Source of the DNA: Candidatus Brocadia sp.
Lineage (GTDB): Bacteria; Planctomycetota; Brocadiia; Brocadiales; Brocadiaceae
Assembly: GCA_021650915.1 (NCBI GenBank)
Contig: CP091279.1
Coordinates: 1,590,001 to 1,622,000 of the forward strand
Length of the DNA stretch: 32,000 bases
Direction of reading: 5' to 3'
In this document: one piece after another, positions 1-31,449 of the stretch
How the letters are laid out: each line of letters opens with the position of its first letter
How positions within the stretch are numbered: the stretch's first letter is position 1
Program-made: the position numbers and the translations under genes
The notes under the pieces: model-generated
The model's database searches: none
Seen by the model: the letters and a program-made list of their open reading frames with translations, nothing else
What the model was told of the DNA's origin: nothing

Positions 1-98
1 TAAAAGGGTAAAATATGGCGAAAATGAAGGGATTCTGGGTATAAAGAGTCCAAATATTCGGTTCATTAACCCACTAGCCAAAGGACATTCGATAGAAG

Positions 99-1562
99 AT
101 GAGAAAGAGATTTGAGCAGCAATTGAAGCTTGGCATCATACCCATTTCAGGGGTAAAACTGCCAATAAAGAGTCGAGATGAGCTACCACCGATACTGAGG
201 GCGTTGCAACATATCTATGTTACACCGGAGTTGAACGAGGAGGTATTCCGGATATTAGAGGCGAAGGTAACGAAGGGGAAGAAAAAGACGGGAAGATATG
301 GGATGGATTTATGGCATATTTTGGTGTTGTCGGTGGTAAGATTAGGGTTAGATGCCGATTATGACAGGTTGGAGGATTTTGCCAACCATCACAAACTTAT
401 CAGGCAGATAATGGGGGTTGAGACGGCATTTGGAGAGGCGAAGGTTTTTTCGATGCAGAGCATCAAGGACAATATAAGATTGTTGGATGAGGAGACCCTC
501 AGGCAGATAAATGAAGTGGTGATATCATCGGGGCATCAGTTGGTTAAAAAAAAGGACGAAGGACTGTGTATTAAGGTGGATACGTATGTGTTAGAGACGA
601 ATGTACACTTTCCGACCGATATGAATTTATTGTGGGATGCGGGACGCAAGAGTCTGGACATGATAGAGGATGCAATAGAGGAAGGCATCCTGGCGGGGAA
701 AGGATGGCGCAAGAGCAAATATTGGAGGAGAGAGTTAAAAAAGCTGATGAGGATAAGCGCAAAGGCGTCAAGCAGCGGGGGGAAAAACAAGGAAGAGCAT
801 GTGAGGAGTTACTTGGAATTATCGAGGGGTTTGAGTGAAAAGATAGGAGCGAGTCTGTTAGCCATCTACGAAAAGGTGCTAACGACGAACCAGGTAGACA
901 AGCATGCAGGGAAAATAGGGACACTGGAGTATTTTCACGGGATGTTGAATAAACAGATAGACCTGGTGGAGAGAAGGGTGATCCGGGATGAGGTAATACC
1001 GGCGGCAGAAAAGGTTCATTCGTTGTTTGAGCCGCATACGGAGTGGCTGTACAAAGGCAAGTCAAACAAAAGGGTAGAGTTGGGACATAATATTCTGGTA
1101 GCAAGCGATCAGTGGGGTTTCATCGTGGACCATGTGGTAGGAGAAAAACAGGCGGATGTATCGTTGGTAATTCCATTGGCAGATAGGTTGTTGAGCCGTT
1201 ACGGAGAAGGCACAATAAAGAGTATAAGTTTTGATAAAGGTTTTTACAAGAAAGAGAATAAAGAGTTGCTGAGTTTGTATATACCAGAGGTAATCCTTCC
1301 CAAGAAGGGCAAGAAGAATAAGGCGGAACAGGAAGAGGAATCGGGTAAGACATTTAAGAAGCTAAGGCACAAGCACTCGGCGGTAGAATCGGATATCAAT
1401 CGTTTGGAGCATCACGGCTTGGATAGGTGTCCGGACAAAGGGCTGCATGCCTTTAAAAGATATTGTGCAATGGGCGTGTTAGCTGCGAATTTGCACAAGC
1501 TGGGAAACGTGCTGCAGGAGAAGGCACGGAAGCAGTGCGAAAAGTTGCGAAAAGCCGCCTAA
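99..1562 (+). CDS. DDE transposase, intact (487 aa)
   Basis: Uninterrupted ORF. Motifs read as IS4/IS5-type DDE: VDTYVLETNVHFPTDMNLL (D1), SISFDKGFY (D2), HSAVESDINRLEHHGLDRC...VLAANLHKLG (E region). From memory, the element size (~1.85 kb) and a possible 6-bp flanking repeat fit the ISNCY/ISDol1 group; this is unverified. Confidence 0.85.
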   Translation: MRKRFEQQLKLGIIPISGVKLPIKSRDELPPILRALQHIYVTPELNEEVFRILEAKVTKGKKKTGRYGMDLWHILVLSVVRLGLDADYDRLEDFANHHKLIRQIMGVETAFGEAKVFSMQSIKDNIRLLDEETLRQINEVVISSGHQLVKKKDEGLCIKVDTYVLETNVHFPTDMNLLWDAGRKSLDMIEDAIEEGILAGKGWRKSKYWRRELKKLMRISAKASSSGGKNKEEHVRSYLELSRGLSEKIGASLLAIYEKVLTTNQVDKHAGKIGTLEYFHGMLNKQIDLVERRVIRDEVIPAAEKVHSLFEPHTEWLYKGKSNKRVELGHNILVASDQWGFIVDHVVGEKQADVSLVIPLADRLLSRYGEGTIKSISFDKGFYKKENKELLSLYIPEVILPKKGKKNKAEQEEESGKTFKKLRHKHSAVESDINRLEHHGLDRCPDKGLHAFKRYCAMGVLAANLHKLGNVLQEKARKQCEKLRKAA

Positions 1563-1727
1563 GCAAGCAAAAAACACGAAGAAAAACAGTCTGCCGGGAG
1601 GCAGGTACGCCCAGACAAGGCTAAAATAAAGGGGAAAACAAGGGAAATATGTAAAAGAACAGTATTTTTGCCAAAAACCCTAATCTCAAATCTTAAAATT
1701 ATCTATTGGTAAATAGAAAATCGACCT

Positions 1728-1752
1728 CGCACTTTTACAAAAAGTGCGTTTT
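1728..1752 (+). terminator. Hairpin plus T-run inside the IS right arm (intrinsic-terminator-like)
   Basis: CGCACTTTT-aca-AAAAGTGCG forms a 9-bp stem followed by TTTT, just inside the right inverted repeat. The same hairpin occurs at 3582-3606 and 31128-31152. Confidence 0.5.
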
Positions 1753-1767
1753 CGTTCAGACACTAAC

Positions 1768-3619
1768 TAGTGTTTGAACGGAAACCCCCCAGAGCCCTGT
1801 AAAGTAAGGAGAAGCTGGTGAAAAATGTTCATGAAAGTCATTGAATTTTTTCGGGTAAAAGGGTAAAATATGGCGAAAATGAAGGGATTCTGGGTATAAA
1901 GAGTCCAAATATTCGGTTCATTAACCCACTAGCCAAAGGACATTCGATAGAAGATGAGAAAGAGATTTGAGCAGCAATTGAAGCTTGGCATCATACCCAT
2001 TTCAGGGGTAAAACTGCCAATAAAGAGTCGAGATGAGCTACCACCGATACTGAGGGCGTTGCAACATATCTATGTTACACCGGAGTTGAACGAGGAGGTA
2101 TTCCGGATATTAGAGGCGAAGGTAACGAAGGGGAAGAAAAAGACGGGAAGATATGGGATGGATTTATGGCATATTTTGGTGTTGTCGGTGGTAAGATTAG
2201 GGTTAGATGCCGATTATGACAGGTTGGAGGATTTTGCCAACCATCACAAACTTATCAGGCAGATAATGGGGGTTGAGACGGCATTTGGAGAGGCGAAGGT
2301 TTTTTCGATGCAGAGCATCAAGGACAATATAAGATTGTTGGATGAGGAGACCCTCAGGCAGATAAATGAAGTGGTGATATCATCGGGCATCAGTTGGTTA
2401 AAAAAAAGGACGAAGGACTGTGTATTAAGGTGGATACGTATGTGTTAGAGACGAATGTACACTTTCCGGCCGATATGAATTTATTGTGGGATGCGGGACG
2501 CAAGAGTCTGGACATGATAGAGGATGCAATAGAGGAAGGCATCCTGGCGGGGAAAGGATGGCGCAAGAGCAAATATTGGAGGAGAGAGTTAAAAAAGCTG
2601 ATGAGGATAAGCGCAAAGGCGTCAAGCAGCGGGGGGAAAAACAAGGAAGAGCATGTGAGGAGTTACTTGGAATTATCGAGGGGTTTGAGTGAAAAGATAG
2701 GAGCGAGTCTGTTAGCCATCTACGAAAAGGTGCTAACGACGAACCAGGTAGACAAGCATGCAGGGAAAATAGGGACACTGGAGTATTTTCACGGGATGTT
2801 GAATAAACAGATAGACCTGGTGGAGAGAAGGGTGATCCGGGATGAGGTAATACCGGCGGCAGAAAAGGTTCATTCGTTGTTTGAGCCGCATACGGAGTGG
2901 CTGTACAAAGGCAAGTCAAACAAAAGGGTAGAGTTGGGACATAATATTCTGGTAGCAAGCGATCAGTGGGGTTTCATCGTGGACCATGTGGTAGGAGAAA
3001 AACAGGCGGATGTATCGTTGGTAATTCCATTGGCAGATAGGTTGTTGAGCCGTTACGGAGAAGGCACAATAAAGAGTATAAGTTTTGATAAAGGTTTTTA
3101 CAAGAAAGAGAATAAAGAGTTGCTGAGTTTGTATATACCAGAGGTAATCCTTCCCAAGAAGGGCAAGAAGAATAAGGCGGAACAGGAAGAGGAATCGGGT
3201 AAGACATTTAAGAAGCTAAGGCACAAGCACTCGGCGGTAGAATCGGATATCAATCGTTTGGAGCATCACGGCTTGGATAGGTGTCCGGACAAAGGGCTGC
3301 ATGCCTTTAAAAGATATTGTGCAATGGGCGTGTTAGCTGCGAATTTGCACAAGCTGGGAAACGTGCTGCAGGAGAAGGCACGGAAGCAGTGCGAAAAGTT
3401 GCGAAAAGCCGCCTAAGCAAGCAAAAAACACGAAGAAAAACAGTCTGCCGGGAGGCAGGTACGCCCAGACAAGGCTAAAATAAAGGGGAAAACAAGGGAA
3501 ATATGTAAAAGAACAGTATTTTTGCCAAAAACCCTAATCTCAAATCTTAAAATTATCTATTGGTAAATAGAAAATCGACCTCGCACTTTTACAAAAAGTG
3601 CGTTTTCGTTCAGACACTA
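1768..3619 (+). mobile_element. IS element copy 2, head-to-tail with copy 1
   Basis: Full-length copy from TAGTGTTTGAACGG... to ...GTTCAGACACTA. TAACTA is present at both boundaries (1764-1769 and 3618-3623). This reads as either a 6-bp TSD with ends GTGT/ACAC, or a 2-bp AC repeat if TA belongs to the element. Confidence 0.9.
1954..3416 (+). pseudogene. DDE transposase, frameshifted (GGGG->GGG at 2385-2387)
   Basis: The ORF track splits it into 164-aa and 340-aa pieces. Copy 1 has CATCGGGGCATC at 530-533 and copy 2 has CATCGGGCATC. Copy 2 also changes FPTD to FPAD (acc->gcc, about 2468). Confidence 0.85.
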
Positions 3620-4155
3620 ACTATTTTAAAATTCATGTCAATAATTAAGTATGGTGTCCGTACGCAGTAACATTTGTTTATTCTTACGGGTTAAAGTCCC
3701 GTCCGGGGAATTATCCGTTCACCCCGGTAGTTCAAGGGAGCGGCGTCTGAGCAATCAGGGGTCGTAAGTTCCCAATTGGCAAAACCGCAGGCCGCAGCGC
3801 AAGCGAACCTACAAGTAGCCTCGTCAATACAAATTGAAGATGCCGACCCCGTGGACACGTGGGGAAGGCCGAAGATTGCAGACTCAGGCAACGGAAGGAG
3901 TCTGTAATATCTTCCGGGGTAGCAGGGGCGGTATGCAGTGGAAGATAAACAGACCAGTGCTGGAGACCCTATGCAGTAATGTTTGAGGGGCATAAACCGC
4001 TCTGTATAAGGAAACGAAATCACAGCGGGCTGTATAGGGAGTCGGAGGGGTTCATGATACCGTTTGAGGACAAGGGACAACAAAACCCTGTTCGAGGAAA
4101 GGAACCCTGCTTTGTTCATGCAACCGAAGAGTAGAGGAAAAGGGAGATTGCAGAA

Positions 4156-5472
4156 ATGCTAACAACCCCGGAAAAGATCAGGATACTACAGAGGAAGCTA
4201 TACCGAAAGGCCAAGCAAGAACCAACCTACCGCTTCTACGCCCTCTATGACAAGGTATTCCGGGCAGACATCCTCAGTCATGCTTACACCCTTGTCCGTG
4301 CCAACAAAGGGAGCGCCGGGATAGACGGCGTAACCTTCGAGGCCATCGAGGAAAGAGAAGGGGTATCCGCCTTTCTGGCGGAACTGCAAGAAGCACTCAG
4401 GAGCAAGACCTATCAAGCAAGCCCTGTAAAACGAGTAATGATACCCAAGACGGACGGAACGGAACGCCCGTTAGGCATTCCCACCATCCGTGACAGGGTA
4501 GCGCAGATGGCCGTAAAACTGGTCATAGAACCCATTTTTGAAGCCGATTTCTGCGAATGTTCATACGGGTTCAGGCCGAAGAAATCTGCCCACGATGCCG
4601 TAGATGACGTAGCATATACCCTCAACAAGGGATATACCGAAATCATAGACGCCGACCTGTCCAAATACTTTGACACCATCCCCCATGCCAAGCTTATGGC
4701 TGTGGTAGCAGAGCGCATCAGTGACGGTGAGATACTGCACCTGATAAAGACGTGGCTCAAGGCTCCGGTCATAGAAAAAGGCAGAGACGGAAAACAAAGG
4801 AACATCGGCGGAGGTAAAGGGAACCGGAAAGGCACACCTCAAGGAGGAGTAATCTCACCGTTACTAGCCAATCTCTACCTGCACCTCCTGGACAGGATAT
4901 GGGAGAGACATCGACTGGAGAAGAAACTCGGAGCCAGATTAGTACGCTTTGCCGATGACTTTGTCGTACTGTGCAGGCAAGGAACTGAACAGCCAATGGC
5001 GATAACAAAGCGGGTGCTGGACAAACTGGGACTGACGTTAAACGAGGCAAAGAGCCGTGTAGTAGACGCCATGAAAGAGGGATTTACCTTTCTTGGGTTT
5101 GAACTTCAAAAGAGGAAGAATTGGCGCACGGGGAAGAGTTATCCCCATGTTCAGCCGTCGAAGAAATCTCTCAAGAAGATAAAAGACCACATTACGGCAC
5201 TTACCAGCAGGAACAGGTCCCCTCTACCGTTTGAAGCGATAGTCAAAGAGGTGAATACGGCACTGATAGGATGGACAGGATACTTCCATTATCGCAATTG
5301 CAGCAGAGTCCTCAAGCAAGTAAGAGAACACGCTCAATTCCGGCTTCGGATACACCTGTACAGACGTCATAAAATCAGAGACAGGAAGACAGGGCTTAAG
5401 CGATACACAAACAGCATGTTATATGAGAGATATGGTCTTTACAAAGTGCCGACCACAGCGGTATGGAGATAG
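4156..5472 (+). CDS. Group II intron reverse transcriptase/maturase (438 aa), no endonuclease domain
   Basis: RT motifs: RPLGIPTIRDRVAQ, TPQGGVISPLLANLYL, VRFADDFVVL (YADD variant), FTFLGF. X/maturase motif: GWTGYFHY. The protein ends about 60 aa later without a CxxC/HNH block. Confidence 0.92.
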   Translation: MLTTPEKIRILQRKLYRKAKQEPTYRFYALYDKVFRADILSHAYTLVRANKGSAGIDGVTFEAIEEREGVSAFLAELQEALRSKTYQASPVKRVMIPKTDGTERPLGIPTIRDRVAQMAVKLVIEPIFEADFCECSYGFRPKKSAHDAVDDVAYTLNKGYTEIIDADLSKYFDTIPHAKLMAVVAERISDGEILHLIKTWLKAPVIEKGRDGKQRNIGGGKGNRKGTPQGGVISPLLANLYLHLLDRIWERHRLEKKLGARLVRFADDFVVLCRQGTEQPMAITKRVLDKLGLTLNEAKSRVVDAMKEGFTFLGFELQKRKNWRTGKSYPHVQPSKKSLKKIKDHITALTSRNRSPLPFEAIVKEVNTALIGWTGYFHYRNCSRVLKQVREHAQFRLRIHLYRRHKIRDRKTGLKRYTNSMLYERYGLYKVPTTAVWR

Positions 5473-5500
5473 CGCATGCCTTATGGTGAAGGGCATCGGA

Positions 5501-5533
5501 AAGCCGTGTGCGGGAAAACCGCAAGCACGGTTT
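5501..5533 (+). ncRNA. Group II intron domain V (catalytic hairpin), copy A
   Basis: AAGCCGUGUGCGG-GAAAA-CCGCAAGCACGGUUU. It has a lower helix of 9 pairs, a 2-nt AA bulge and an upper GCGG/CCGC helix. The AGC triad is at the base. Confidence 0.8.
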
Positions 5534-5659
5534 GATGAGGGAGGACTGGCGAAATAGCATGGTGAGGCTACTGAGGCACTGCCAGACGAAAGGGGCAGAA
5601 ACAGATAGGCCAACCTAAACTATAGATAGCCAGTTCCCTACTCTACCCAGAATCCCCCA

Positions 5660-5688
5660 TTGACAATGTGTAGCCTTCTGGCTACAAT
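5660..5688 (+). promoter_or_regulatory. Sigma70-type promoter with embedded palindromic operator for the TA pair
   Basis: TTGACA (5660-5665), a 17-nt spacer, then TACAAT (5683-5688). The perfect palindrome GTAGCC-ttct-GGCTAC (5670-5685) spans the spacer and the -10 element. Confidence 0.65.
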
Positions 5689-5985
5689 ATGGTCATGATT
5701 GAAATTCGCAAGACTGAGATCTTCACCAAATGGCTTGATGGTTTGCATGATATTCGCGCACGCGCCCGGATTCTTGCCCGGATAGAAAGATTAGCGGCTG
5801 GAAATCCCGGGGATGTTAAAGCTTTAGGTGGAGGCGTTTCAGAGATGCGGATAGATTATGGTCCAGGTTATCGGGTATATTACATAAAGCACGGCCTAGA
5901 GGTGGTAATTTTACTGGCGGGTGGTGACAAGCATACCCAAACCAGAGATATCAAAACCGCCTTACGCTTAGCAAGGAATTTATGA
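5689..5985 (+). CDS. RelE/ParE-superfamily toxin (addiction module killer, HigB-like)
   Basis: MIEIRKTEIFTKWLDGL...GDVKALGGGVSEMRIDYGPGYRVYY...VVILLAGGDKHTQTRDI matches the killer-protein pattern of this TA family. The true start is probably ATG 5695, since the -10 hexamer ends at 5688. Confidence 0.8.
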   Translation: MVMIEIRKTEIFTKWLDGLHDIRARARILARIERLAAGNPGDVKALGGGVSEMRIDYGPGYRVYYIKHGLEVVILLAGGDKHTQTRDIKTALRLARNL

Positions 5986-5996
5986 GGAGGTGTATC

Positions 5997-6383
5997 ATGG
6001 CAAAAACAATTACTTCCAGATACGATGTGGCAGAACATCTTCGCACACCAGAGGAAATGGCTGCTTATCTTGAAGCATGTCTTGAGGAAGCAACTGAAGA
6101 TGCTGCATTTATTGCTAAAGCTTTGGGTGATATTGCACGGGCTAAGGGCATGTCACAAGTTGCGCGTGATGCAGGACTGTCTCGTGAAAGCCTTTACAAA
6201 GCGCTTTCAGGAGAACGAAGTCCTGGCTTTGACACAATATTAAAAGTTATAGCTGCACTCGGTTTGAAATTGCATGCAGAAGCAATTCACGTAAATAGCC
6301 AAAATACCCAACAAAACACTCTACCGGATACCGAGAAACGCGCCGAGGCGCTACGCGGCAATGTTCCTTGCCGGCGCCGGTGA
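5997..6383 (+). CDS. HTH antitoxin (addiction module antidote, HigA-like)
   Basis: GGAGG lies 6 nt upstream of ATG 5997. The HTH segment is GMSQVARDAGLSRESLYKALSGERSPGFDTILKVIAALG. It lies immediately downstream of the toxin, the toxin-first order typical of HigBA-type modules. Confidence 0.8.
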   Translation: MAKTITSRYDVAEHLRTPEEMAAYLEACLEEATEDAAFIAKALGDIARAKGMSQVARDAGLSRESLYKALSGERSPGFDTILKVIAALGLKLHAEAIHVNSQNTQQNTLPDTEKRAEALRGNVPCRRR

Positions 6384-6412
6384 GCTTGATCGTTAGGCCG
6401 CACAAAAAGATA

Positions 6413-6433
6413 GGGTAATTCCTGGGTAATTCC
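6413..6433. repeat. Direct repeat GGGTAATTCC x2 next to intron B 3' junction
   Basis: GGGTAATTCC occurs at 6413-6422 and 6424-6433, separated by one T. Confidence 0.7.
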
Positions 6434-6548
6434 GGGTAGAGTAGGGAACTGGCTATCTATAGTTTAGGTTGGCCTATCTGTTTCTGCCCCTTTCGTCTGG
6501 CAGTGCCTCAGTAGCCTCACCATGCTATTTCGCCAGTCCTCCCTCATC

Positions 6549-6581
6549 AAACCGTGCTTGCGGTTTTCCCGCACACGGCTT
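6549..6581 (-). ncRNA. Group II intron domain V, copy B
   Basis: Exact reverse complement of 5501-5533. Confidence 0.8.
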
Positions 6582-6609
6582 TCCGATGCCCTTCACCATA
6601 AGGCATGCG

Positions 6610-7926
6610 CTATCTCCATACCGCTGTGGTCGGCACTTTGTAAAGACCATATCTCTCATATAACATGCTGTTTGTGTATCGCTTAAGCCCTGTCTTCCTG
6701 TCTCTGATTTTATGACGTCTGTACAGGTGTATCCGAAGCCGGAATTGAGCGTGTTCTCTTACTTGCTTGAGGACTCTGCTGCAATTGCGATAATGGAAGT
6801 ATCCTGTCCATCCTATCAGTGCCGTATTCACCTCTTTGACTATCGCTTCAAACGGTAGAGGGGACCTGTTCCTGCTGGTAAGTGCCGTAATGTGGTCTTT
6901 TATCTTCTTGAGAGATTTCTTCGACGGCTGAACATGGGGATAACTCTTCCCCGTGCGCCAATTCTTCCTCTTTTGAAGTTCAAACCCAAGAAAGGTAAAT
7001 CCCTCTTTCATGGCGTCTACTACACGGCTCTTTGCCTCGTTTAACGTCAGTCCCAGTTTGTCCAGCACCCGCTTTGTTATCGCCATTGGCTGTTCAGTTC
7101 CTTGCCTGCACAGTACGACAAAGTCATCGGCAAAGCGTACTAATCTGGCTCCGAGTTTCTTCTCCAGTCGATGTCTCTCCCATATCCTGTCCAGGAGGTG
7201 CAGGTAGAGATTGGCTAGTAACGGTGAGATTACTCCTCCTTGAGGTGTGCCTTTCCGGTTCCCTTTACCTCCGCCGATGTTCCTTTGTTTTCCGTCTCTG
7301 CCTTTTTCTATGACCGGAGCCTTGAGCCACGTCTTTATCAGGTGCAGTATCTCACCGTCACTGATGCGCTCTGCTACCACAGCCATAAGCTTGGCATGGG
7401 GGATGGTGTCAAAGTATTTGGACAGGTCGGCGTCTATGATTTCGGTATATCCCTTGTTGAGGGTATATGCTACGTCATCTACGGCATCGTGGGCAGATTT
7501 CTTCGGCCTGAACCCGTATGAACATTCGCAGAAATCGGCTTCAAAAATGGGTTCTATGACCAGTTTTACGGCCATCTGCGCTACCCTGTCACGGATGGTG
7601 GGAATGCCTAACGGGCGTTCCGTTCCGTCCGTCTTGGGTATCATTACTCGTTTTACAGGGCTTGCTTGATAGGTCTTGCTCCTGAGTGCTTCTTGCAGTT
7701 CCGCCAGAAAGGCGGATACCCCTTCTCTTTCCTCGATGGCCTCGAAGGTTACGCCGTCTATCCCGGCGCTCCCTTTGTTGGCACGGACAAGGGTGTAAGC
7801 ATGACTGAGGATGTCTGCCCGGAATACCTTGTCATAGAGGGCGTAGAAGCGGTAGGTTGGTTCTTGCTTGGCCTTTCGGTATAGCTTCCTCTGTAGTATC
7901 CTGATCTTTTCCGGGGTTGTTAGCAT
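6610..7926 (-). CDS. Group II intron reverse transcriptase/maturase (438 aa), identical to 4156-5472
   Basis: The 438-aa translation is identical in the ORF track. Confidence 0.92.
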   Translation of the reverse strand: MLTTPEKIRILQRKLYRKAKQEPTYRFYALYDKVFRADILSHAYTLVRANKGSAGIDGVTFEAIEEREGVSAFLAELQEALRSKTYQASPVKRVMIPKTDGTERPLGIPTIRDRVAQMAVKLVIEPIFEADFCECSYGFRPKKSAHDAVDDVAYTLNKGYTEIIDADLSKYFDTIPHAKLMAVVAERISDGEILHLIKTWLKAPVIEKGRDGKQRNIGGGKGNRKGTPQGGVISPLLANLYLHLLDRIWERHRLEKKLGARLVRFADDFVVLCRQGTEQPMAITKRVLDKLGLTLNEAKSRVVDAMKEGFTFLGFELQKRKNWRTGKSYPHVQPSKKSLKKIKDHITALTSRNRSPLPFEAIVKEVNTALIGWTGYFHYRNCSRVLKQVREHAQFRLRIHLYRRHKIRDRKTGLKRYTNSMLYERYGLYKVPTTAVWR

Positions 7927-8439
7927 TTCTGCAATCTCCCTTTTCCTCTACTCGTCGGTTGCATGAACAAAGCAGGGTTCCTTTCCTCGAACAGGGTTTT
8001 GTTGTCCCTTGTCCTCAAACGGTATCATGAACCCCTCCGACTCCCTATACAGCCCGCTGTGATTTCGTTTCCTTATACAGAGCGGTTTATGCCCCTCAAA
8101 CATTACTGCATAGGGTCTCCAGCACTGGTCTGTTTATCTTCCACTGCATGCCGCCCCTGCTACCCCGGAAGATATTACAGACTCCTTCCGTTGCCTGAGT
8201 CTGCAATCTTCGGCCTTCCTCACGTGTCCACGGGGTCGGCATCTTCAATTTGTATTGACGAGGCTACTTGTAGGTTCGCTTGCGCTGCGGCCTGCGGTTT
8301 TGCCAATTGGGAACTTACGACCCCTGATTGCTCAGACGCCGCTCCCTTGAACTACCGGGGTGAACGGATAATTCCCCGGACGGGACTTTAACCCGTAAGA
8401 ATAAACAAATGTTACTGCGTACGGACACCATACTTAATT

Positions 8440-9117
8440 TTAGAGATTCTTATTTTTCTTTTGAAGCACCTTTGGGCCGGGTTTCTGCTTATTGAGCATT
8501 CTCCCAAGGACATTTTCAAGCCTGACTATAAAACGGTTAGTGCCCAGAGGTCTTCCGGTTCGCTCGTGACATCGAAACCTTTCGACTTCTTCATCTGATA
8601 GACCTCTGGAAAGAAAATCACTCCACTTGCCAAACATTTCAAGCAACGGAGCTACATGCACAAGCCGATCATCTCGTCCAGCAATGTGTGCAGATGCACT
8701 GCTCCATCGGTACCCCTGTGGTTTCTTAACCAAATTTGCCCTCACAGGATTCAGTTCAACATAGCGTGCGGCTACGTACAGATGGGTTTTGTCCATGGGA
8801 AAAGAGGCAAAACGTCCTTGCCATAGGTGTCCTCCCCAGCCTTCCCGGAAGTTTACGCGACGCGTGTAGCGCCGATGCGTTTCGCCAATTGCCTGACTAA
8901 GTGCCTTTTCAGACGGCGGAACTGCAATCAGGTGTACATGGTTTGGCATCAGGCAATAGGCCCATACTTCAACGTTCCAGTGTGTACACCACTGAGACAT
9001 CAGGTCTATGTACGCCTCATAATCCTCGTCGCAGAAGAATGTCTGTAAACGTCGATTTCCCCGCTGAGTAACATGATGTGGAACTTCCGGTACGACTACA
9101 CGAGCAATTCTGGACAT
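8440..9117 (-). CDS. IS200/IS605-type Y1 (HUH) transposase, REP-associated tyrosine transposase-like
   Basis: ARVVVPEVPHHVTQRGNRR at the N-terminus, the HUH motif in LMPNHVHLIAV, WQGRF, and the Tyr region AARYVELNPVRANLV...YRWSS. The ATG at 9117 is preferred over the GTG at 9123 (homologues begin M-x-R-x-AR). Confidence 0.75.
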   Translation of the reverse strand: MSRIARVVVPEVPHHVTQRGNRRLQTFFCDEDYEAYIDLMSQWCTHWNVEVWAYCLMPNHVHLIAVPPSEKALSQAIGETHRRYTRRVNFREGWGGHLWQGRFASFPMDKTHLYVAARYVELNPVRANLVKKPQGYRWSSASAHIAGRDDRLVHVAPLLEMFGKWSDFLSRGLSDEEVERFRCHERTGRPLGTNRFIVRLENVLGRMLNKQKPGPKVLQKKNKNL

Positions 9118-9140
9118 GCACACATCTTAACTATTTTCGG

Positions 9141-9176
9141 TTCTTCTCCCAATTAGTCAATAAGAATTGAGAAGAA
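9141..9176. repeat. Imperfect palindrome upstream of the Y1 transposase gene
   Basis: TTCTTCTCCCAATT - agtcaataag - AATTGAGAAGAA: 12 bp pair, with a 2-nt bulge. Confidence 0.5.
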
Positions 9177-9230
9177 AATCCTTTAAATCAGTGAAAAGAG
9201 TGGACATTTGGTGTTTCCTATAGATAGATA

Positions 9231-10324
9231 TAGTTCGTTGCATTGATTATGTTAAATAATTCTCAAAGAATTTCTTGGTCAATTCAGGGTTCTTCTGTAT
9301 TTTTCTAAGCGCTCCAATGACTAAACGTCCAAGTTGTTTTTTGTCCTGTGCCTGGTGATTCTTTAGCGTGACATGCTTCATATGCCGCCAAACTTTTTCA
9401 TCCGGATTCAGATCCGGTGAGTACGGCGGCAGATGGAATACGCGTAGCTTCGATGACCCCTCATTCAATGCTTTAATTCTTTTGGCAACATGGCAAGGCG
9501 CTTGGTCCATGATCACCGCCACCTTACGCCGCGGATGTTGCACGCTAATTTGATTCAGAAATTCCATAAGAACCTGGGCGTTAACTTTTCGTTTCTCCAG
9601 ACGGAAACACATCCTGCCAGATGGCGAAATCGCCGACATGGCCAAAACGCCGCCCCGTTTCCCGGTCACACGCACAACGGGGGTTTCTCCTATCGGAGCC
9701 CATGTTTTTCCAATAACAGGCGCAAGGGAAACGCCCGACTCATCCTCAAAATAGATAATAGCCCGGTTTTTCTGAGCCCACTTCTGAATTTCAGGCCACT
9801 CCTTGCTAATCCATGTCTTTACCAAATCCATGTCTTGCTGTGAATAACGTTTTTCCGGCTTTTGAAAACTCAAACCCAACCGAACCAGATATCGCCATAT
9901 TGTGCTGCGATCCAAATTCACTTTTCCTTCTCGCCGGAAAAGAATTCTAACATATGTTCCGGTCCACAGCGGAGTCGAAAAACCATATTTTGTCGCGACA
10001 TTCTGCAAAACACTTTGCAACCATCTTAAATCATCCGCATTTACAATTCGCGCCTTGCCCTTTGCTTTGCGTTCCTTAAGCGCCTCTATACCACCACGAC
10101 GGTATTGAGAGAACCACCTTGAGACACTTTCATACTTAATGCCAAATATCTCGCCTATTTCTTTAACGGAATAATGCATCTTATCCCTGAGCGTGATCGC
10201 CCGGATTCGATAAGACTCCAATACCTCCCTTGACAGCTTCCTTCCGTCATCTTTCATGCTCCTATTTTACAACATTTTATCTAGCAATGAAACTAATTAT
10301 TAACTTAATTAATGCAACAATCTA
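9231..10324 (-). mobile_element. IS630-family insertion sequence (1094 bp)
   Basis: Terminal inverted repeats TAGTTCGTTGCATTGATTA (9231-9249) and TAGATTGTTGCATTAATTA (reverse complement of 10306-10324) match 16/19. A TA dinucleotide flanks both sides (9229-9230, 10325-10326), the family's characteristic target duplication. Confidence 0.85.
9247..10257 (-). CDS. IS630/Tc1-mariner-type DDE transposase (336 aa)
   Basis: N-terminal HTH (YSVKEIGEIFGIKYESVSRWF). Catalytic blocks IIYFEDESG, VIMDQAPCH and PPYSPDLNPDEKVW. Confidence 0.9.
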   Translation of the reverse strand: MKDDGRKLSREVLESYRIRAITLRDKMHYSVKEIGEIFGIKYESVSRWFSQYRRGGIEALKERKAKGKARIVNADDLRWLQSVLQNVATKYGFSTPLWTGTYVRILFRREGKVNLDRSTIWRYLVRLGLSFQKPEKRYSQQDMDLVKTWISKEWPEIQKWAQKNRAIIYFEDESGVSLAPVIGKTWAPIGETPVVRVTGKRGGVLAMSAISPSGRMCFRLEKRKVNAQVLMEFLNQISVQHPRRKVAVIMDQAPCHVAKRIKALNEGSSKLRVFHLPPYSPDLNPDEKVWRHMKHVTLKNHQAQDKKQLGRLVIGALRKIQKNPELTKKFFENYLT

Positions 10325-31269: not shown

Positions 31270-31325
31270 AGCCTTACTGCAAAAATGTTCATCCAAACAT
31301 CTTCGGCAGTAAGGCTATCTTTTTG
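31270..31325 (+). terminator. Long hairpin with flanking A/T runs (bidirectional-terminator-like)
   Basis: AGCCTTACTGC (31270-31280) pairs perfectly with GCAGTAAGGCT (31306-31316). The 25-nt loop contains an inner ATGTT/AACAT stem. The hairpin is preceded by AAAAAA and followed by ATCTTTTT. Confidence 0.45.
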
Positions 31326-31449
31326 TCGCTACAGCAAGTTCGTCTTTCGCTACCTACGTCCGTGTACGTCTGGAAAAGACCCTTTACTTTGCGTCCCCTG
31401 ATCACTCAGGGTTTGCCCTTATCGTGATATATTTTATTTCATAATCTTT

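Follow-up and report, generated by a model that had tools for sequence, protein, structure and literature searches.

Two inverted group II introns at a toxin-antitoxin locus

A stretch of 32,000 nucleotides (nt) from Candidatus Brocadia sp. (contig CP091279.1; here called the window) carries two nearly identical group II introns, which face each other in inverted orientation across a toxin-antitoxin (TA) gene pair. We describe these introns (copies A and B), the 25-bp repeat that both of them occupy, and the Y1 transposase elements of the TIRYT/TIRtron kind whose terminal inverted repeat (TIR) it is. The window corresponds to positions 1590001-1622000 of the genome, which is a closed single contig of 4.05 Mb with 45% GC; coordinates are positions in the window unless marked "genome." The features around the two introns are the following.

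3618-3659, plus strand: left end of TIRtron #1, consisting of the reverse complement of the Y1 5' untranslated region (UTR) and the inner 17 nt of the repeat (AATTAAGTATGGTGTCC, 3643-3659); 5' exon of intron A, with intron-binding site 1 (IBS1) at 3654-3659
3660-5646, plus strand: group II intron copy A, 1987 nt, 5' GUACG ... CUCUAC 3'; RF02005 at 3693-3929, RF00029 at 5499-5646
3853-3858, plus strand: exon-binding site 1 (EBS1), GGACAC, in the loop of a domain I hairpin; pairs with IBS1 GUGUCC at 3654-3659
4156-5472, plus strand: intron-encoded protein (IEP) of copy A, 438 amino acids (aa), reverse transcriptase (RT) and maturase without an endonuclease (En) domain; Pfam RVT_1 and GIIM
5647-5654, plus strand: outer tip of the TIRtron #1 repeat (CCAGAATC), 3' exon of intron A
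5689-5985, plus strand: toxin gene, RelE/ParE-type (HigB-like, "upstream of HI1419" family); TIGR02683 130 bits (cutoff 62.85), Pfam Gp49
5982-6383, plus strand: antitoxin gene, helix-turn-helix, HI1420 family; TIGR02684 122 bits (cutoff 53.7), Pfam PF21716 and HTH_3
6428-6435, minus strand: outer tip of the TIRtron #2 right repeat (CCGGAATT), 3' exon of intron B, with a tandem tip copy (6413-6427) next to it
6436-8422, minus strand: group II intron copy B, with its IEP open reading frame (ORF) at 6610-7926 (minus strand) and EBS1 at 8224-8229
8423-8439, minus strand: inner 17 nt of the TIRtron #2 right repeat, 5' exon of intron B
8440-9137, minus strand: Y1/HUH gene (RAYT-like TIRYT; ORF 8440-9123, 227 aa, Pfam Y1_Tnp) and 5' UTR of TIRtron #2

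The window contains two inverted repeat arms of 2025 nt each (3635-5659 and 6423-8447). Both introns were matched by RF02005 (D1-D4; 79.9 and 74.5 bits, cutoff 49; Rfam subfamily group-II-D1D4-6) and by RF00029 (D5-D6; 47.7 bits in both copies, cutoff 40), and the 438-aa IEP ORF is unbroken in A and in B. Repeat arms, Rfam matches, and intact ORFs thus agree with an earlier interpretation made from the letters alone (here, the sequence-only reading), which had seen two near-identical, inverted group II introns flanking a TA pair. It had also listed at least three substitutions between the copies, and an ungapped comparison confirmed these three, and no others inside the arms, at 3862/8220, 3932/8150, and 4128/7954. 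The 5' flank AATTAAGTATG is common to A and B without a difference, and the 3' flanks CCAGAATCCCCCA and CCGGAATTACCCA match at 10/13 positions, again as that reading had described them.

The intron boundaries had to be corrected. The earlier bounds at 3654 (A) and 8428 (B) were 6 nt off, and the introns extend over 3660-5646 (plus strand) and 6436-8422 (minus strand). The hexamer GTGTCC belongs to the exon, because unoccupied repeats carry a hexamer of this type joined directly to CCRGAAT. It varies among otherwise near-identical intron copies, with G, A, or C before TGTCC, and this is the only position showing three bases. The alignment of related introns from other genomes starts at GUA(C/U)GC, and the sequence before it is unrelated. 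An intron start at 3654 was considered as well; it would require an EBS1 complementary to AAGTATG, and none was found in domain I. With the corrected boundaries, the 3' end ...CUAC fits the consensus AY, and the 5' end GUACG (GUAYG across the lineage) is a variant of the consensus GUGYG.

The target is the end repeat of a Y1 transposase element

The 25-bp repeat, AATTAAGTATGGTGTCCCCGGAATT, is split by the intron as AATTAAGTATGGTGTCC/CCGGAATT (the slash marks the insertion point). Its reverse complement, AATTCCGGGGACACCATACTTAATT, contains GGGGACAC, which fits GGGG[AT][CG]A[CG]. This is the motif of the repeats flanking TIRYT genes ("TIRtrons"; Di Nocera et al. 2013, PMC3733652), and TIRYT corresponds to subclass 2.1 of Quentin et al. 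2018 (PMC6006769). The intron cuts the conserved GGGGWSAS core as GG/GGACAC, since EBS1 pairs with the GTGTCC just 5' of the insertion point. A genome search for what the sequence-only reading had taken as a 24-mer, which that reading had proposed, found the same 25-bp sequence at at least 14 places, always with extended context and both with and without an intron. The similarity of the two sites in the window is therefore far beyond chance. That the sites are two copies of a dispersed repeat serving as the homing site of this intron had been one of two earlier suggestions, and the occupied and empty copies across the genome bear it out. It had further been remarked that the 3' exons resemble each other more than EBS/IBS pairing requires, which is accounted for by the shared TIR (CCRGAATT).

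The repeat belongs to elements with a Y1 gene. In the protein encoded at 8440-9123, Pfam Y1_Tnp was matched with 55 bits (Y1 domain at residues 17-123), and an HVH motif and a conserved tyrosine are present; the best NCBIfam match is NF047646 (REP_Tyr_transpos, 66 bits), with IS200 at 24 bits. BLAST against the genome revealed 3 full-length and 7 partial copies of the Y1 gene region, 88-96% identical to the window copy. The gene in the window is the sole intact copy, whereas the other full-length ones (genome 3907883-3908584 and 1677880-1678584) carry frameshifts that leave open frames of at most 105 and 93 aa. At genome 1677866-1678623 lies the sole element with both ends, in which 25-bp terminal repeats, 21/25 complementary, surround the Y1 gene. 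This two-ended element also shows that the second context in which the intron is found is the reverse complement of the Y1 5' UTR.

Both introns of the window can be placed on this element. Intron B lies 17 nt past the Y1 stop codon, in the same orientation as the gene and inside the right repeat of TIRtron #2; the context of 8423-8439 is identical at 5 occupied and 2 empty right ends. The context of 3618-3659, in front of intron A, recurs at the left ends of Y1 copies at genome 1678600, 1676780, and 386391. TIRtrons as described likewise combine a RAYT-like Y1/HUH protein that has a C-terminal extension with nonpalindromic TIRs containing GGGG[AT][CG]A[CG], and their repeats, as in Brocadia, also occur solo and in tandem. 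Unlike in the described TIRtrons, decay has affected most copies in this genome, and the intron sits in most of the ends that are still usable.

On the far side of the Y1 gene, a 94-nt repeat (9139-9232; at least 15 genomic copies at 95-100% identity) abuts the Y1 5' UTR in place of the left repeat; it is probably a miniature inverted-repeat transposable element (MITE) or an insertion sequence (IS) end.

Occupancy of the repeats and recency of spread

Genome-wide, the intron is confined to TIRtron ends. It is present in 7 full-length copies and 1 5'-truncated copy, and all 8 sit in TIRtron-type repeats. Each of the 7 full copies has AATTAAGTATG-NTGTCC in front of it. Five intron copies directly follow the same sequence of ~60 nt, the 3' end of the Y1 gene, and 2 copies, A included, follow ...AAAAT(T/A)(C/A)ATGTCAATAATTAAGTATG, the reverse complement of the Y1 5' UTR. 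On the other side, the 3' exon CCRRAAT is found after 8/8 copies and CCRGAAT(T) after 6/8. Occupied and empty sites share CCRGAAT(T) and then diverge. The empty repeats, at least 6 in number, read AATTAAG(T/C)ATG, then GTGTCC, ATGTCC, GTATCC, or GTGCCT, then CCRGAAT. Among six clear ones, 3 have IBS1 mismatches, 2 carry a T>C change at -10 next to a perfect IBS1, and 1 is a perfect target.

The intron copies are 99.85-100% identical to each other (0-3 differences in 1987 nt), compared with ~4-12% divergence of the host Y1 elements from the window copy. Together with the empty sites, this is the pattern expected from recent, sequence-specific retrohoming into older, diverged repeats. Copy A has exactly the sequence of the copies at 1.10 and 1.67 Mb. 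Copy B carries the same variants at 3932 and 4128 as the copy at 3.44 Mb, plus a private change at 3862 (G>A at 8220). Because A and B share variants with different genomic copies, they stem from separate events.

The polymorphic sites of the 8 copies all fall in the first 475 nt (3654-4128), 5' of the ORF; the remaining 1.5 kb, which comprises the ORF and the 3' domains, has none.

EBS1 covaries with the target

The EBS1 of this intron, GGACAC, lies in a loop that Rfam draws as a variable loop of 9 nt. Across 28 distinct intron/target combinations, EBS1 and IBS1 pair at a mean of 5.57/6 positions, compared with 3.97 in shuffled combinations, and 0/2000 shuffles reach the observed value. Compensatory changes occur at -3 (T-A in 11, A-T in 9, and G-C in 3 cases) and also at -5. 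The first base of the 3' exon is C in 37/45 related sites, as expected of an IBS3 contact, and this C at +1 probably joins the EBS1 pairing in target recognition.

For EBS2, a candidate loop, AUACAAAUU (3829-3837), was located 5' of the EBS1 hairpin. Discontinuous pairing of this loop with AAUUAAGUAU (-17 to -8) is possible, and would be broken by the T>C change at -10 of two empty sites. Across 32 related introns, the best complementary run was no better than in shuffled pairings (159/2000 did as well), and we therefore do not claim an EBS2. Identification of EBS1 and EBS2 by folding domain I had been proposed by the sequence-only reading; EBS1 could be identified, with covariation, and EBS2 was not demonstrable.

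The intron-encoded protein and the class of the intron

The IEP, which is encoded in D4, matches TIGR04416 with 396.8 bits (cutoff 300), and the domain search, which returned RVT_1 and GIIM and no endonuclease domain, supports the earlier view of the intron as En-less. The RT active-site motif is FADD instead of the usual YADD (IEP residues ~273-276). The solved structures nearest to the IEP are the class C (IIC) RTs 7uim and 6ar1, with 194 and 193 bits.

Class C introns insert 3' of intrinsic terminators or into the attC sites of integrons (PMC4424553; PMC7923331); they are defined by a position just 3' of a terminator or an attC-type stem-loop, a short IBS1 of 3-4 bp, and the lack of EBS2 (PMC7923331). 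The Brocadia intron resembles them in having no En domain and in its IEP, which among solved structures is closest to IIC RTs. As with IIC introns at attC, it targets a motif in DNA on which another recombination system also acts, and some of its relatives target a perfect palindrome or a hairpin like a repetitive extragenic palindrome (REP) (L043, L075-L088). However, its EBS1 and its upstream sequence do not fit the definition of class IIC. In contrast to the 3-4 bp of IIC introns, EBS1/IBS1 of the Brocadia lineage measures 6 bp and covaries over all six positions. Also unlike IIC introns, the Brocadia target has no hairpin upstream of IBS1, D5 starts with AGC, and the 5' end is GUACG. In the 60 nt 5' of either copy, no stable hairpin was found (-0.6 and -2.7 kcal/mol; z = +1.1 and 0.0).

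Probable independent retrohoming into neighboring TIRtron ends

From these results, we consider it probable (roughly 85%) that the En-less intron retrohomed independently into two neighboring TIRtron end repeats, each of which was its homing site. Two tandem, decayed TIRtrons with their genes both on the minus strand happen to flank the TA pair, and both ends of a TIRtron carry a homing site that points outward. The left and right ends that face each other at the locus therefore present opposed homing sites, and an inverted intron pair follows from this arrangement. The 25-bp TIR is recognized by pairing of the EBS1 loop GGACAC with the GTGTCC just 5' of the insertion point, probably together with the C at +1 (IBS3). 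Insertion may proceed by reverse splicing primed at replication forks, by analogy with other En-less introns (PMC4424553). With respect to replication, the 8 copies are split 4:4 between the strands and show no bias (cumulative GC-skew minimum at 3.08 Mb, maximum at 0.75 Mb). Once occupied by the intron, a repeat would presumably be disabled for the Y1 transposase.

Several observations weigh against this interpretation or parts of it. The match of the Y1 protein to REP_Tyr_transpos stays below the equivalog cutoff (66 versus 80 bits), and its C-terminal extension (~100 aa, residues 124-227), where proteins of subclass 2.1 have an HTH-like region, found no Pfam match even at E<=1, so the TIRYT assignment rests on the repeats and their motif. 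Only one two-ended element is left in the genome, its Y1 gene is frameshifted, and the left repeat of the Y1 element in the window is missing. The perfect right-end target ATGTCC/CCGGAAT at genome 3907870-3907893 is empty and yet identical to an occupied site. Moreover, we infer current activity of the intron solely from the intact ORFs and the near-identity of the copies, and this near-identity could partly reflect gene conversion.

Instead of retrohoming independently, the introns might have spread passively with transposed or duplicated TIRtrons, or might have been homogenized by gene conversion. Five copies indeed share the same upstream Y1 3' end, and since Y1 gene and intron are co-oriented at right ends, a composite of the two could in principle move. 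However, the host Y1 copies are ~4-12% off the window copy, and the introns differ at 0-3 of 1987 nt. The 60-nt flanks next to the intron differ at up to 5 positions, and introns are found at left ends, at right ends, and at truncated remnants. Most of the empty sites are mismatched to the target, which sequence-specific homing would give, and a repeat with a split core should be hindered in its recognition by the transposase. We therefore regard passive spread or homogenization as unlikely.

The toxin-antitoxin pair is a bystander

The other earlier suggestion was that the TA module itself is a mobile, MITE-like cassette with inverted repeats of ~24 bp, into whose ends the introns had homed. 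When the introns are removed in silico, the 789-bp TA segment (5647-6435) is indeed flanked by inverted copies of the repeat that are 23/25 identical. However, only one copy of this segment exists in the genome, and the homologues from two congeneric species (G005 and G013; 77% identical) have no repeat on either side. The repeats also have the wrong topology. Both turn their outer tips to the TA pair, which is the reverse of the two-ended element, and their far sides run into TIRtron body, namely, the Y1 3' end at B and the Y1 5' UTR at A; the TA pair thus lies outside both elements. A TA cassette is accordingly very unlikely, and the TA pair is a bystander between two decayed TIRtrons and not their cargo.

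The two TA genes overlap by 4 nt. Homology to the TA pairs of the two congeneric species begins at 5658, past the repeat tip and just before a TTGACA promoter box. In two loci (L022 and L023), the homology spans 5658-6288 and stops inside the antitoxin gene; the final ~30 residues of the antitoxin, which follow the HI1420 domain, have another origin, as does the spacer up to 6412. The inverted arms of 2 kb make the TA segment a plausible invertible segment.

An assembly artefact, or the local duplication of a single insertion in inverted form, is a very unlikely origin of the pair. Inverted repeats of 2 kb with 99.85% identity and a spacing of 789 bp commonly lead to misassembly, but here the outer flanks (Y1 5' UTR versus Y1 3' end) and the 3' exons differ, the three substitutions place A and B in different sublineages (1.10/1.67 Mb versus 3.44 Mb), and the genome is a single closed contig.

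Left of intron A, the window begins with another mobile element:

1-3617, plus strand: ISNCY-family IS, tandem dimer; transposase ORF 2394-3416, NF033593 315 bits

The dimer was inserted at TAACTA in the 5' UTR of TIRtron #1, where it parts a Y1 remnant (genome 1589582-1589920) from the left end repeat. Its junctions, ...ATCTTAACTA/GTGTTTGAACGG and GTTCAGACAC/TAACTATTTT, match uninterrupted Y1 elements.

The outer tip of the repeat is tandemly duplicated beside intron B, as CCGGAATTACC-CAGGAATTACCC (6413-6435), and forms an array, CCGGAATTCA-CCAGAATTCA-CCAGAATTCA, downstream of the truncated intron copy (genome 352590-352620). Such tandem tips could have been left by the Y1 transposase or have arisen through slippage.

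Related introns in other genomes

An IEP that is 94% identical was found in a record of Candidatus Jettenia ecosi, and the intron of a Jettenia locus (L066) sits in AATAATTAAGTATGGTGTCT/CCGGAATT. In a species of the same genus (L014), an internally deleted intron occupies the same position of the right repeat, with an empty left repeat nearby. In two other genera of the family (L009 of G017 and L011 of G023), 5'-truncated remnants are followed by CCRGAATT. Outside the family, a metagenome-assembled genome (MAG) of Nitrospirota (L027) has an intron with a 72%-identical IEP in ...AATTAGGTATGATGTCC/CCGGAAAT, beside a Y1 gene of 62% identity; an unoccupied copy of the repeat follows in tandem after 9 nt, on the downstream side, and that genome has more solo copies. 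A Deltaproteobacteria MAG (L091) has a Y1 gene bracketed by repeats, and a solo copy of these repeats in its neighborhood holds a related intron. In a Geobacteraceae MAG (L043), the intron targets a perfect palindrome, GGGGACAGCATATCTAAT...ATTAGATATGCTGTCC/CC, in its 3' arm.

A Desulfobulbaceae MAG (CAXXDG01; L075-L088) harbors 14 related introns (61% aa identity) in dense arrays of a REP-like hairpin, GTGCGTCATACGCAC/C. Their EBS1, GTGCGT, matches the 3' arm of the hairpin.

For the 43 related introns with both junctions defined, all from the one lineage covered, a second copy of the intron's own target was found within ~5 kb in 21/43, compared with 0.03 expected per locus. A single MAG accounts for 14 of these introns and for 10 of the 21 cases with a second copy, which leaves 11/29 outside it, and some of these latter matches are weak (5-6 mismatches in 22). 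A Y1 gene is located within 3 kb at 10 loci, and GGGG[AT]CAN spans the junction in about half of the sites of closer relatives, by our reading of the site table. The pattern is not universal, because the genome of L045 (Desulfuromonas) contains no second target copy at up to 3 mismatches. As a tentative proposal, which we hold slightly more likely to fail than to stand, there may be a lineage of En-less introns (IEPs 55-94% identical) specialized on repeats used by Y1/HUH proteins, either GGGGWSAS TIRtron ends or REP-like palindromes, in Planctomycetota, Nitrospirota, Desulfobacterota, and probably Pseudomonadota.

Relation to known systems

It is well known that group II introns can home into other mobile elements, and the standard example is RmInt1 of Sinorhizobium meliloti, an En-less group II intron with its natural homing site in ISRm2011-2. 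Like the Brocadia intron, RmInt1 encodes an En-less RT/maturase, homes sequence specifically into a mobile element via EBS/IBS pairing, and multiplies with that element. In contrast to RmInt1, whose site lies inside a DDE transposase gene, the Brocadia intron uses the GGGGWSAS core in the TIR of a Y1/HUH element and inserts at either end of that element; EBS2 pairing is not demonstrable. For the context of RmInt1-type En-less introns, see PMC5894124 and PMC4424553.

IStrons, chimeric elements that join a group I intron to an IS200/IS605 element (PMC4227781), also combine a self-splicing intron physically with the end of a Y1-family transposon. They differ in that their intron is group I, is fused to the IS, and moves with it as one unit by transposition. 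In Brocadia, a group II retroelement invades preexisting transposon ends, and there is no evidence for a joint unit.

The Brocadia intron is a homing-site intron whose site is the conserved core of a Y1 transposon end repeat. A literature search combining group II introns with RAYT, REP, tyrosine transposase, Brocadia, and Kuenenia found no description of a link between introns and TIRtrons. At this locus, the attractive idea of a mobile, TIR-bounded TA cassette is replaced by one that has been tested, with corrected boundaries and an EBS1 backed by covariation. TIRtrons, which have barely been studied, gain a natural marker in an intron that reads their conserved core and may neutralize those ends. 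The target types listed for bacterial group II introns are homing sites, terminators, and attC sites (reviewed in PMC4424553). If the lineage-wide pattern is true, a further, motif-type target class would stand beside gene homing sites, terminators, and attC, and the sequence of the EBS1 loop would predict the repeat family of a genome. It would also provide a tractable case of one selfish element systematically policing or parasitizing another.

Elsewhere in the window, at 31301-31426 on the minus strand, a match to the c-di-GMP-I-GGC riboswitch (RF03167) was found with 64.6 bits (cutoff 59).

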